Shown here in pieces: positions 51,915 through 55,637 of a stretch of DNA of 64,000 bases; within the stretch, counting starts at the first letter, position 1, and the number at the start of each line of letters is the position of its first letter. Source of the DNA: Escherichia phage vB_Eco_F27; the sequence record OP870146.1; one strand, given 5' to 3'. The notes under the pieces are model-generated. The model worked only from the letters and a program-made list of their open reading frames with translations, made no database searches and had not been told where the DNA came from. The position numbers were made by a program, and so were the translations under genes.

Positions 51915-54900
51915 ATGGCTACATTAAAACAGATACAATTTAAAAGAAGCAAAGTAGCAGGAGTTAATCCTACTGCAGCACAATTAGCCGAAGGCGAATT
52001 AGCGATAAACTTAAAAGATCGAACTCTTTTTACCAAAGATGACCTCGGTAATATTATTAGCCTAGGCTTTGCTAAGGGCGGGGATATTAACGGTAATGTA
52101 ACTCATGTAGGTAACTATACTCAGACAGGTACATTTAATTTAATAGGCTCACAAAATGTTGCATCTGGTGGATATATCGAATTTGCTTATAAGGCCACCG
52201 GAGTTGGTTCTTGGGCCGGTCAACACACGGCAAAAGCCCCTATTTTCATGGATATTTCCGCATCAACCGCTACTTCAGAATATAACCCGTTAATTAAGCA
52301 ACGTTATAAAGATGGTACTTTCTCATTAGGGACCTTAGTTAATGAAGGCTCAATGAAGATGCATTATATTGATGAAACAGGCACTTCGAAATATTGGACC
52401 TTTAACCGTAATGGTAATTTTCAAGTTGATTCCGGAAATTTATTAGTAGCTAATGGATATTTAGTTACTCAAAGTAATATTGAAACTAAAGCTGGTTCTT
52501 TAATTGGTCCTAAAGTTATTACCAAAAATATCAATGTGAGCACTAAATCTTGGGACACTAATATTGATACTGCATATGATTTAGTTTCATTACCGACTTG
52601 GCAGTATACTCCAACCGAAACGGATTTGGATACTAATGGTATAAACTACCTTCGTAAATTCCGCGGACATGTTTCTTCTGCTATTTTCCATGAAATTGCC
52701 GATGCTCGTTCAGGTAAACCACAGAATATTTCATATTGGACTGGACGCAATGCTGAAGTTTATCAATGGTCTTATACCACCGACGGGCGTATGTCTGTTG
52801 CTAATTCGATAGGTGTAGGTCTTGCCGATGTCGGCTCCCAAGGGCGTTATCCTTTGGCAACATTTGGTAAAGGTATTGCAATTGGTGATAATGACACTGG
52901 TGTTAAATGGGTTCGTGACGGTGTTATTGATTTGGTTGCTAATGGCATTTCGGCGGGTACAATAAACAGCAATGGTATTAACAGTACTAAAAAATTGATG
53001 GTTGGTTATAGCCGTGATTCCGGAACTACATGGGATTACCCAAATAACAACCAAGCAATGTTTACTGCGCGTACCGATGTTGATGGTAATAATAATGGTG
53101 ATGGTCAAACTCATATCGGTTATAGCAGTAATTCTAAAATGTATCACTATTTCCGTGGCACGGGTCGTATGTCCATTAGTATGGGTGATGGGCTTCTTGT
53201 TGAGCCTGGCATTTTAGATATTAAAACCGGTTCAAATTCGTTAAATTTGCGTGCTGATGGTACCATCGCTTCTGTTCAAACATTAAAACTTAATAATGGA
53301 TTATATTTTAATGGTGATGGAACTAATGCTTCTCTAGTTTTTAAAGCAGCTTCAGGTATTGATGGCACTAAGCAAATTTTGTGGGAAGGCGGTACTCGTG
53401 CTGGTCAGAATAAAAGCTATGTAACTGTTAAAGCATGGGGTAATTCATTTAACGCATCTGGCGATCGTAATCGTGAAACGGTTTTTGAAGTATCAGATGG
53501 GCAAGGATATTATTTTTATTCACAGCGTGTGGCTCCAAGTGGCTCTGAAACTACTGGGCCTGTTGTAACGCAGTTCAATGGACAAGTTAATGCTAGAGGA
53601 AGTATTATTACTGACGGAAGTTTTAAAGTTAATGGATTAAGCACTTTAAATGGTGCAGTTACCATGAGCAATGGACTTAATTTAACAGGCGGTTCTTCTA
53701 TCACAGGTCAAGTTAAAATTGGTGGAACAGCAGATGCATTAAGAATTTGGGATGCTGAATATGGTGCTATTTTCCGTCGTTCTGAAGATAAATTTTATAT
53801 AATTCCGACCCCAAAGGACGCTGGCGGAACTGGTGGTATTTCCAACCTTCGTCCATTTACCATGACTCTTAGTACTGGTAAAATGGAATTTAAACATGAT
53901 GTTGGACTTGGTGATAACGGCTCCGGCGGAAGCATATTATTTGTAGATAACACTAACAAAGCCACTACTAATAATGGTCGTTTATACGTTAATATGTCAA
54001 GTGATGCTATAGTGCTTAATGCTCCTACACAAGAAACATCTAACTTTATCCAAGGACGCAAAGCTAACGTCACTAAATGGTATGTTGGTATTGGCGACAG
54101 CGGTGATTCTGTTCGTATGCATAGTTATGCATATTCCCACGGCTTGGTATTAAGTGCTAACTCCGTTGATATTACTAAACCTCTTAAAGTCGGAAATGCT
54201 CAATTCGGTACTGATGGTAATATCACCGGTGGTTCTGGTAATTTTGCTAACTTGAATACCACAATAAATAACCTTAAGACGGATATTGTCTCAAGTTATC
54301 CTATTGGTGCTCCGATTCCTTGGCCTACTGATACACCTCCTGAAGGTTATGCCATAATGGAAGGTCAAACATTTGATGCTGGCTTGTATCCTAAGTTAGC
54401 TGCGGTGTATCCTTCCGGCGCTCTGCCTGATATGCGTGGTCAAACTATCAAGGGTAAACCATCTGGGCGTGCTGTATTGAGTACAGAAGCAGACGGTGTT
54501 AAGTCACATAGCCATAGTGCAAGTGCATCAAGCACAGATTTGGGTACTAAGACCACTTCTAGTTTTGATTACGGTAGCAAAACGACTTCAAGCTTTGATT
54601 ATGGTACTAAGACCAGTAATACCACTGGCAACCATAACCATACAGTGAGTGGTAATACTAGCGCAGCAGGTAACCACCAGCACTCACAGACCGGTCCAAG
54701 GGGTCCTAATAACCAACCGACCGGGATATTTCCTAATGGGGCTACTCTAATTAGTGGAACCCAGGTTGTTGGTTTTGGCCTAAGCAACGGTGTCGTGCCT
54801 GGTTCAAGCCAATATATTGCAAAGTCATCGACAGAAGGTAACCATACCCACTCTTGGTCAGGAACTACTAGCGCTACGGGTAACCATGCCCACACCGTTG

Positions 54901-55055
54901 GTATTGGTGCCCATACACATACTGTAGGTATTGGTGCCCACTCTCATTCGGTAGCGATTGGTTCCCATGGACATACAATAACTGTAAATGCCACAGGAAA
55001 TACAGAAAACACAGTTAAAAACGTTGCTTTTAACTATATCGTTCGTTTAGCATAA
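51915..55055 (+). CDS. 37: long tail fibre distal subunit gp37 (receptor-binding)
   Basis: ORF track 1046 aa; C-terminal His-x-His repeats ([53 protein letters not shown]) typical of the metal-binding tip. Confidence 0.9.
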
Positions 55056-55060
55056 GGAGA

Positions 55061-55080
55061 AGGGACTTCTGTCCCTTTTT
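55061..55080 (+). terminator. hairpin terminator after gene 37 (AGGGAC-UUCU-GUCCCU-UUUUU)
   Basis: Stem-loop plus U-tract immediately after the gene 37 stop. Confidence 0.55.
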
Positions 55081-55085
55081 ATAAT

Positions 55086-55637
55086 ATGAAACTCTATCAC
55101 TATTATTTTGACACTAAAGAATTTTACAAAGAAGAAAATTATAAACCATTAAAAGGCGTAGGATTTCCGGCTCATTCGACACCAAAAAAACCTTTAGACC
55201 CTAAAGAAGGCTATGCTGTTGTATTTGATGAACGCGAACAAGAATGGGTGTATGTTGAAGACCATCGTGGAAAAACAGTATGGACTTATGATAAGCAAAA
55301 AATTGTTATTGACACTCCAGGTGCTCTTCAAAATGTTACTACAGAAGAACCTGGTGAATTTGACATTTGGACCGACGACGGGTGGAAGGAAGATGAAGCA
55401 TATAAACGCGTAGTTCAACGTGATAAGAAAATTCATGAACTCTATAAATTATTCAGTGTTTTAAGTTCTCTTATTGACGCAGAGGTTGCTAATAGAGAAG
55501 AAAAACTAAAATTTAAAGAGCTCAAAAAATTCTTTGCCCTTTTAGAAAAACATGAACATCTTGGCGGCGAATTCCCTAAATTCCCTGACCTTGAAAACAA
55601 ATCTATTGTCAAAGCGATTATAAATATCTTTAAGTAA
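55086..55637 (+). CDS. 38: tail fibre assembly chaperone gp38 (T4 type)
   Basis: ORF track 183 aa; translation recognised as T4 gp38. Confidence 0.85.
   Translation: MKLYHYYFDTKEFYKEENYKPLKGVGFPAHSTPKKPLDPKEGYAVVFDEREQEWVYVEDHRGKTVWTYDKQKIVIDTPGALQNVTTEEPGEFDIWTDDGWKEDEAYKRVVQRDKKIHELYKLFSVLSSLIDAEVANREEKLKFKELKKFFALLEKHEHLGGEFPKFPDLENKSIVKAIINIFK

Follow-up and report, generated by a model that had tools for sequence, protein, structure and literature searches.

Gene 37 of Escherichia phage vB_Eco_F27 ends in a tandem decapeptide repeat that is followed by an array of H-x-H motifs. The question raised by this locus is whether the repeats have expanded to lengthen the fibre and to vary its host range, as a sequence-only reading of the DNA had proposed, or whether they are structural parts of a conventional fibre tip. 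The window analysed here is a 64,000-nt stretch of sequence record OP870146.1, to which all positions refer, and features lie on the + strand unless described as antisense. I found that gene 37 probably encodes an ordinary T4-type needle tip in the eight-site form that is also seen in lambda, with the repeats acting as matched spacers and the head setting host choice.

Gene 37 and its chaperone

The entry for gene 37 in the list of open reading frames spans 51915-55055 and encodes 1046 aa plus a stop codon. In a phmmer search against the PDB, aa 768-1046 of the protein matched residues 2-242 of the T4 gp37 crystal chain 2xgf_A (E = 2.6e-87), and this homology covers the collar, the needle, and the C-terminus. 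Together with the gene order g34-g35-g36-g37-g38-t, the match bears out the earlier assignment of the protein as gp37, the distal subunit of the long tail fibre. Identity to T4 gp37 is 51% over the whole protein, while Mosigvirus NBG1 gp37 shares 98.8% nt identity across 94% of the gene. The Pfam domains gp37_trimer, Gp34_trimer, and Collar (PF07484, at aa 798-845; E = 3.6e-11; 43.3 bits, cut-off 24) were found in the protein, as were PF03335 Phage_fiber repeat in six stretches (25 bits, cut-off 20), and phrog_295 tail fiber (E = 5e-112). Judged by its sequence, region 51915-55055 of OP870146.1 is the gene of a T4-type gp37 that bears the receptor-binding tip of a Mosigvirus-like phage. An antisense 98-aa open reading frame at 54599-54895 was rejected as a gene, as it lies wholly within the conserved gp37 frame and has no support.

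Downstream, gene 38 (55086-55637) encodes a tail-fibre assembly chaperone of 183 aa with 68% identity to T4 gp38 (E = 2e-92), a Caudo_TAP match, and a match to phrog_105 'tail fiber assembly' (E = 2.6e-49). The earlier description of gp38 as a T4-type chaperone and not an adhesin is thereby confirmed, and folding of the gp37 tip would be expected to require it. Between the two genes lies a terminator-like hairpin, GAGAAGGGAC-UUCU-GUCCCUUUUU (55057-55080), with an MFE of -15.9 kcal/mol and z = -3.76. The homologous place in NBG1 is annotated 'terminator', although a consensus terminator scan of F27 made no call after g37 despite the strong hairpin there.

Layout of the tip and its H-x-H array

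The path of the chain through the F27 tip was derived by homology to T4 gp37 (PDB 2XGF). It begins at the collar domain (aa 798-845; 54306-54449), which was delimited by PF07484 and the 2xgf alignment and is equivalent to part of T4 domain D10, using the D10/D11 boundaries of PMC6957217. The outgoing strand would leave the collar with H-x-H no. 1 (KSHSHS, aa 865-867; 54507-54515), which aligns to T4 His883/885, and run through a 42-aa His-free spacer that holds three tandem decapeptide units (aa 877-906; 54543-54632). H-x-H nos. 2 (HNH, aa 907-909) and 3 (HQH, aa 921-923) follow 14 aa apart (54633-54683), and the latter aligns to T4 H929/H931, an essential iron site (PMC6957217). The chain would then form the variable head, or tip domain (aa 924-976; 54684-54842), which is predicted to be the cassette that contacts the receptor. 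On the way back, the returning strand would carry H-x-H nos. 4 (HTH, aa 977-979) and 5 (HAH, aa 991-993), again 14 aa apart (54843-54893), and then the three nonapeptide units GIGAHTHTV, GIGAHSHSV, and AIGSHGHTI (aa 996-1022; 54900-54980), which contain H-x-H nos. 6-8 and were detected by both Tandem Repeats Finder and PF03335. The last H-x-H lies 29 residues before the end of the protein. The remainder is a conserved C-terminal segment of the T4/lambda type (54981-55052) that is near-invariant in alignments and is expected to rejoin the collar, since its T4 counterpart, residues 1010-1026, is part of D10 (PMC6957217).

The array thus comprises eight H-x-H motifs, three before the head and five after it, starting at aa 865, 907, 921, 977, 991, 1000, 1009, and 1018 (nt 54507, 54633, 54675, 54843, 54885, 54912, 54939, and 54966). 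All 16 His of the last 186 residues fall into these eight pairs, while the first 860 residues contain 10 His and not a single H-x-H. An earlier count of 'seven or so' was accurate for the interval 54535-54990 that it described, but it overlooked KSHSHS, which starts 28 nt upstream of that interval. The earlier statement that H-x-H motifs are iron ligands in the T4 needle agrees with the literature, which reports seven such sites (PMC6957217, PMC12609058). In a trimer, each H-x-H level would present six His to one metal ion, so that eight iron sites are predicted in F27 gp37 as opposed to seven in T4.

The repeats compared with T4 and lambda

The tandem repeat of about 30 nt that had been noticed near the C-terminus is real and encodes three 10-aa units. 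At the nucleotide level, the repeat search placed a family of three 30-nt copies at 54537-54626, with 73% and 70% identity to the reference copy, and the best tandem identity of 23/30 exceeded the maximum of 19 obtained in 2000 shuffles. Tandem Repeats Finder did not call the decapeptide repeat in gene 37 because the copies are too diverged; the sole array that it reported in the gene was the 27-nt × 2.9 array of GIGAHxHxV units at 54900-54976. Thr, Ser, Asp, and Tyr abound in the decapeptides, which are strongly conserved in sequence.

F27 gp37 is, as had been proposed, about 20 residues longer than T4 gp37 (1046 versus 1026 aa), and an alignment of the two showed how this difference arises. 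Upstream of the first H-x-H, F27 is 18 aa shorter (865 versus 883), and from there on it is 38 aa longer, made up of +10 in the spacer, +19 in the head, and +9 in the returning repeats. T4 lacks one of the decapeptides and one of the GIGAHxHxV units, and repeat number, His array, and length all differ between the two proteins. The spacing between successive H-x-H motifs is 42, 14, 56, 14, 9, 9, 9 in F27 and 32, 14, 37, 14, 9, 9 in T4, while lambda Stf has 42, 14, 48, 14, 9, 9, 9. The 42/14/x/14/9/9/9 pattern was found in lambda Stf and in five of the five T4-type Mosigvirus gp37 proteins examined. On this comparison of sequences, the layout of three decapeptides plus three nonapeptides is ancestral and widespread and not a recent or phage-specific expansion.

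Coupling of the two repeats

Across 227 distinct homologous tips, many of which are related prophage Stf proteins with far fewer than 227 independent indel events, the spacer between H-x-H nos. 1 and 2 measured 12+10n residues (±1) in 226, where n is the number of terminal 9-aa gaps. Most tips had n = 3 (109 tips) or n = 2 (92), followed by n = 1 (16), n = 4 (7), and n = 5 and n = 6 with one each; F27, with a spacer of 42 and n = 3, fits the rule. The number of FDY-type decapeptides climbed with n, and the outgoing and returning strands had the same number of 14-aa gaps in every tip (0/0 in 107, 1/1 in 119, and 2/2 in 1). One tip, P0081, had a 16-aa instead of a 14-aa gap but was otherwise normal at 32 / 2×9. 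The sole exception to 12+10n was L010 (IMGVR_UViG_3300030021_000020), which has a spacer of 42 aa but just two 9-aa units, one unit having been lost by a clean in-frame 27-nt deletion. Provided that this record is neither misassembled nor derived from a defective genome, imbalance in the needle may thus be tolerated.

In T4 and Bas63, the chain reverses direction at the head, so that the needle has six strands (PMC12609058, PMC9659904), and the near-universal 12+10n relationship suggests that the two repeats pair up as rungs in the hairpin of the needle. The decapeptides and nonapeptides would then be the two sides of shared rungs, in which each added 9-aa unit on the returning strand needs ~10 more residues on the outgoing one, and the pair would be a module of needle length rather than a hypervariable host-range element. 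An AlphaFold2 monomer model of the last 251 aa, built from a 30-sequence alignment as a single chain of a trimeric protein, was unusable (mean pLDDT 49, pTM 0.20). The register of the hairpin strands and the eighth metal site are consequently inferred from homology to T4 and from length covariation.

A more general proposal can be put forward only tentatively, and I would not yet favour it over its opposite: that both repeats make up a single, obligate length module of two strands, with ~10 His-free residues out and 9 residues with one H-x-H back, contributing one iron site each, which has been gained and lost as a pair repeatedly across T4, lambda, and Stf tips (n = 1 to 6) and sets the length of the needle. 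It has been put forward before, in general terms, that the length of the needle increases with the number of H-x-H motifs (PMC12609058), while no statement of an explicit paired-indel rule was found in the literature searched. Needle length may, for its part, be adapted to how deep a surface layer, such as O-antigen or capsule, the head has to cross in order to reach its porin.

Head cassette and probable receptor

Comparison with close relatives located the variation in gene 37 to the head. Across 54667-54846, F27 differed from NBG1 and AV110 by 11-22 mismatches per 30 nt, whereas most flanking bins had 0-4 mismatches and a few had up to 8. Towards JK42 and SSE1, the same head region showed merely 0-5 mismatches per 30 nt (0-3 in the head bins of SSE1). 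Nucleotide identity to NBG1 was ~100% from 51840 to ~54400 and again past 54850 but fell to 35-56% at 54660-54870, where JK42 was 88-93% identical, and the boundaries in identity are sharp and coincide with H-x-H nos. 3 and 4. NBG1 and AV110 gp37 thus represent the shaft type of F27, with a different head allele in NBG1, while SSE1 and JK42 represent its head type, at 96.8% aa identity (SSE1) and 94.4% nt identity (JK42) over the last 251 aa. The JK42 shaft departs from that of F27 in a number of blocks, where nt identity in 100-nt windows drops to as little as 41-60%. All four relatives have eight H-x-H motifs, like F27.

The exact combination of an NBG1-like shaft with a JK42/SSE1-like head was absent from every phage-collection record, and at the sequence level F27 gp37 is a new mosaic of the two. 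The head cassette is probably swapped among phages by recombination within the conserved His-box flanks. Relative to the near-identical gene of NBG1, the differences are concentrated between H-x-H nos. 3 and 4, which contradicts the earlier view of the repeats as the site of host-range variation. The part of that view that invoked slippage survives in a reduced form: changes in repeat number by slippage appear to be real but rare, as in the 27-nt deletion of L010.

Host specificity is accordingly predicted from the sequence comparisons to be set by the head cassette and not by the repeats, and the head is the receptor-specificity region of T4-type gp37 (PMC6957217, PMC10844046, PMC9659904). 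The primary receptor of F27 is probably OmpC, judged by the class of its tip: the Mosigviruses AV117 and AV118, which have T4-type gp37, need OmpC experimentally (PMC10844046), and 17 of 17 Straboviridae assigned to OmpC have a T4-type Gp37 tip with a highly variable D11 tip subdomain (bioRxiv 10.64898/2026.04.02.716166; see also PMC8594841 for the inference at class level). The F27 head is dissimilar to those of T4, AV118, and lambda, and is a different allele from those with tested receptors.

Alternative explanations

The length difference from T4 could in principle reflect a recent, slippage-driven expansion, with changes in repeat number actively varying the host range. T4 does have exactly one 10-aa and one 9-aa unit fewer, repeat number spans 1 to 6 across the family, and L010 shows a clean loss of one unit. 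Short nucleotide repeats are also available, namely an exact 14-nt repeat at 54900/54927, which is the longest within the tip, and a 28-nt pair with 82% identity at 54528/54588; in 1996 Tetart et al. reportedly described host-range mutants of T4 in which the C-terminal region of gp37 carries duplications. The +20 aa, however, is a net figure (-18, +10, +19, +9), and the 3+3, eight-H-x-H layout is shared with lambda Stf, the five Mosigvirus proteins, and 109 of the 227 tips. Moreover, decapeptide copies 1 and 2 are identical at 9/10 residues, of which five are encoded by differing synonymous codons, near-identical relatives vary in the head and not in repeat number, and unbalanced repeat numbers are almost absent (1/227). 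I therefore consider a recent expansion unlikely as a general account and, for F27, already largely refuted.

It is a little less likely still that the decapeptides are themselves a binding surface, for instance for lateral contacts of the shaft with LPS or O-antigen sugars, whose number would tune affinity. Their conserved, Thr/Ser/Asp/Tyr-rich composition would suit this role, and both LPS and OmpC are ligands of the T4 fibre (PMC6957217; in part PMC5221442), but the receptor-contact residues of T4 map to the tip subdomain (residues 929-959), whereas those of the stem are important for folding (PMC6957217). A binding surface would also not account for the almost exact numerical match between the spacer and the returning units, and the near-invariance of the decapeptides across differing heads and hosts (E. 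coli, Shigella, Salmonella, and Klebsiella prophages) is the opposite of what a specificity element would show. That the repeats and the His array are a functionless product of chance in a segment rich in Gly, Thr, Ser, and His can be dismissed almost completely. The missed call by Tandem Repeats Finder and the 70-73% nt identity of the copies would be compatible with chance, but shuffling the tip 20,000 times produced 1.3 H-x-H motifs on average and never more than 6, against the 8 observed, and the tandem identity likewise exceeded its shuffled maximum. The motif positions are conserved in hundreds of homologues and in a solved structure, and the 2xgf match, the comparison of 227 tips, and the shuffles together refute it.

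Implications and comparison with known fibres

The preferred reading, a T4-type needle tip with matched spacers, makes the F27 tip itself a routine adhesin, whose main use lies in the prediction of receptor class and host range, and F27 is just one n = 3 example of the paired-module rule. If that rule is true, fibre engineering could exchange head cassettes at the His-box flanks but should alter needle length only by adding or removing one outgoing decapeptide and one returning nonapeptide together, and each paired change should shift iron stoichiometry by one ion per trimer.

Compared with the T4 gp37 tip (2XGF; D10 and D11), F27 has the same domain order of collar, outgoing strand, head, returning strand, and a C-terminus that returns to the collar, as well as the H-x-H motifs, the 15-residue C-terminal ending, and the downstream gp38 chaperone. 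It differs in one additional decapeptide and one additional GIGAHxHxV unit, in having 8 versus 7 H-x-H motifs, in a head with 19 additional residues and no sequence relationship to that of T4, and in the remaining fibre, which is only ~51% identical with many indels. Lambda Stf, whose chaperone is Tfa, is slightly closer over the last 251 aa (62.7% aa identity versus 59% for T4) and has an identical module architecture with eight H-x-H motifs and the shared decapeptide repeat, but it differs in its head (48 versus 56 residues from H-x-H no. 3 to no. 4), its N-terminal fibre, and its siphovirus context. The Pfam entries PF03335 'Phage tail fibre repeat' and PF07484 'Phage Tail Collar Domain' are generic descriptors of these same gp37 elements and mark no difference.

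Fibres of the T2/T6 type resemble F27 in locus and overall fibre, but their gp37 is without needle and head and is capped by a ~260-aa glycine-rich, hypervariable gp38 adhesin (PMC3157838). Such a fibre with a separate gp38 adhesin was considered for F27 and rejected: gp38 is of the 183-aa, T4-chaperone-like type, and gp37 retains the complete needle and head, so that the adhesin of F27 is gp37 itself.

Identity and layout of the gp37 tip

The feature occupies the final 520 nt of the 3141-nt gp37 ORF (51915-55055, plus strand, 1046 aa in the ORF list), which is adjoined by ORFs for gp34 (1291 aa), gp35, gp36, gp38 (183 aa) and holin t. The gene shares 98.8% DNA identity with gp37 of Escherichia phage vB_EcoM_NBG1 (Mosigvirus; NBG1 hereafter), and several Mosigvirus genomes are ~97% identical over the 20-kb stretch upstream of gp37; the window therefore derives from a Mosigvirus-like T-even phage. 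The sequence-only reading that the feature is the gp37 tip was borne out: the crystallised T4 gp37 tip (2xgf) matches the C-terminal 279 residues with E = 2.6e-87, and Pfam assigns gp37_trimer and Collar to the protein. PF03335 ('Phage tail fibre repeat') exceeds the cut-off when the tip is searched alone. A minus-strand antisense ORF of 98 aa (54599-54895) lies wholly within the tip coding region; it found no support as a gene and probably arises incidentally from codon composition in the Gly/Thr/His-rich gp37 frame.

The tip carries eight H-x-H motifs (H1-H8, at residues 865, 907, 921, 977, 991, 1000, 1009, and 1018) that account for 16 of its 16 histidines, and no H-x-H occurs among the first 860 residues. 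Seven had been counted earlier, and seven do lie within the interval then singled out (54535-54990), but KSHSHS at nt 54507 had been overlooked. The tandem 10-aa repeat proposed near the C-terminus was recovered by repeat search as three decapeptides (aa 877-906, nt 54543-54632, plus strand). Shuffled tips never attained eight H-x-H motifs or the observed tandem identity of 23/30.

Decapeptide copies 1 and 2 are identical at 9 of 10 residues, but their codons differ synonymously at five positions (7/30 nt), and the longest exact nucleotide repeat within the tip is 14 nt. The triple decapeptide and the eight-motif spacing also occur in lambda Stf (42,14,48,14,9,9,9) and in gp37 of the Mosigvirus phages NBG1, JK42, AV110, AV118, and SSE1. 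The arrangement is old and selectively maintained rather than freshly slipped, and the longer eight-motif form is not special to the window phage.

Comparison with the T4 tip

Full-length alignment of window gp37 with T4 gp37 gave 51% identity with indels throughout. Up to the first H-x-H (residue 865 versus 883 in T4) window gp37 is 18 residues short of T4, and beyond that motif it exceeds T4 by 38 aa: +10 aa from an additional decapeptide on the outgoing side, +19 aa from the head, the variable tip domain between H3 and H4 (56 versus 37 residues), and +9 aa from an additional GIGAHxHxV unit on the returning side. The motif spacing is accordingly 42,14,56,14,9,9,9 as opposed to 32,14,37,14,9,9. 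An excess of about 20 residues had been taken as consistent with repeat expansion: the net +20 aa and the added units of 10 and 9 aa stand, but the upstream deficit of 18 and the head gain of 19 do not fit, and the resemblance to 'two repeat units' is coincidental. The motifs do bind iron in the T4 needle, as noted earlier, where seven sites have been seen (PMC6957217; PMC12609058); set against the T4 spacing, the eight motifs of the window tip predict eight iron sites instead of seven.

Proposed paired modules across the tip family

The T4 chain runs outward along the needle, through the head and back to the collar, so that the trimer needle is six-stranded (PMC12609058, PMC9659904); tip domain limits were taken from PMC6957217. 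On the outgoing strand, a long segment devoid of His holds the decapeptides; the GIGAHxHxV nonapeptides, with one H-x-H apiece, belong to the returning strand beside the collar. I compared 120 close homologues, 148 cluster representatives, 62 IMG/VR loci and fetched phage genes, yielding 227 distinct tips, many of them related prophage proteins, with independent events far fewer than 227. With n as the number of terminal 9-residue gaps (1-6), the His-free H1-to-H2 spacer equals 12+10n (+/-1) in 226/227 tips: 22-23 aa for n=1 (16 tips), 32 aa for n=2 (92), 41-42 aa for n=3 (109), 52 aa for n=4 (7), 62 aa for n=5 (1), and 73 aa for n=6 (1). The 14-residue gaps are equal on both strands in all tips (0/0, 1/1 or 2/2), and the FDY-type decapeptide count increases with n.

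On the simplest reading of this length covariation and the published T4 topology, one decapeptide and one nonapeptide would form one hairpin rung with one metal site, and the two units would come and go only together. A monomer AlphaFold2 model of the window tip was unusable, with a pLDDT of 49. The sole unbalanced tip, L010 (IMGVR_UViG_3300030021_000020; ~1900-2034), comes from a Mosigvirus-like metagenomic contig of 10.5 kb; the gp38 on that contig and that of the window are nearly identical. In L010 a clean in-frame 27-nt deletion removes one nonapeptide unit, which marks either a rare variant produced by slippage or an artefact of assembly. The paired-module rule is the one mildly new point, and it belongs to the family rather than to the window specifically.

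More distant IMG/VR tips (L039-L042 and one further locus) are symmetric in other ways. In one type, an additional H-x-H sits next to the collar and the last gap measures 13 aa (11,34,14,41,14,9,9,13); one locus spaces its motifs at three 12-aa intervals on the way out and three on the return (12,12,12,35,12,12,12,14). These layouts again suggest strand-matched modules, of a different period. Several tip-bearing database proteins (P0057, P0065, P0068, P0074-P0076, P0097) carry the source annotation 'terminase large subunit', 'tape measure protein' or 'short-chain fatty acid transporter'; they seem to be prophage tail-fibre ORFs that were mis-annotated or fused.

Exchange of the head

Window gp37 is ~100% identical to NBG1 from 51840 to ~54400 and near-identical again past ~54850, while identity drops to 35-56% at 54660-54870. 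Counted per 30-nt bin, mismatches change abruptly at H3 (54675) and H4 (54843): head bins (54667-54846) have 11-22, flanking bins mostly 0-4 and in a few cases up to 8. JK42 and SSE1 differ from the window head by just 0-5 mismatches per bin; over the last 251 aa, SSE1 shows 96.8% protein identity and JK42 94.4% DNA identity. On this pattern, the head cassette has been swapped between conserved His-box flanks, a known behaviour of the family (Tetart et al. 1996, 1998, as cited in PMC3157838), and gp37 head variability is described in PMC10844046. The combination of an NBG1-type shaft (the fibre upstream) with a JK42/SSE1-type head was found in no record of the phage collection searched. The shaft itself is mosaic relative to JK42 (52081-52420, 53221-53680, 53821-54220): stretches of 41-75% nucleotide identity are interleaved with others of 96-100%. 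To NBG1 the shaft is ~100% identical throughout.

Host range had been placed at the repeats, a view that does not hold given that variation relative to NBG1 is concentrated between H3 and H4; the head is the variable part and the one predicted to determine host range. The repeats are not a hypervariable or recently expanded region; they would be paired structural modules of the needle.

Receptor, gp38, and relation to known adhesins

An OmpC link has been tested experimentally for the Mosigvirus phages AV117 and AV118, which have T4-type gp37 (PMC10844046), and in a 2026 preprint (bioRxiv 10.64898/2026.04.02.716166) 17/17 OmpC-specific Straboviridae carry a T4-type Gp37 tip, its D11 tip subdomain being highly variable. 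This association makes OmpC the likeliest primary receptor here, although the head allele differs from those experimentally tested for OmpC.

A strong hairpin, GAGAAGGGAC-UUCU-GUCCCUUUUU (55057-55080; -15.9 kcal/mol, z = -3.8), follows the stop of g37 and precedes the start of g38. The homologous place in NBG1 is annotated as a terminator, and a consensus terminator scan did not flag the window hairpin. The downstream gp38 (55086-55637, plus strand, 183 aa) shares 68% identity with T4 gp38 across 179 residues and has hits to Caudo_TAP and to phrog_105 'tail fiber assembly', in agreement with its earlier assignment as a T4-type chaperone and unlike the adhesin-type gp38 of T2/T6 (PMC3157838). 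The feature is a real but ordinary gp37 tip: the adhesin is well characterised and comes here in its common eight-H-x-H, lambda Stf-like form, as a new mosaic allele.
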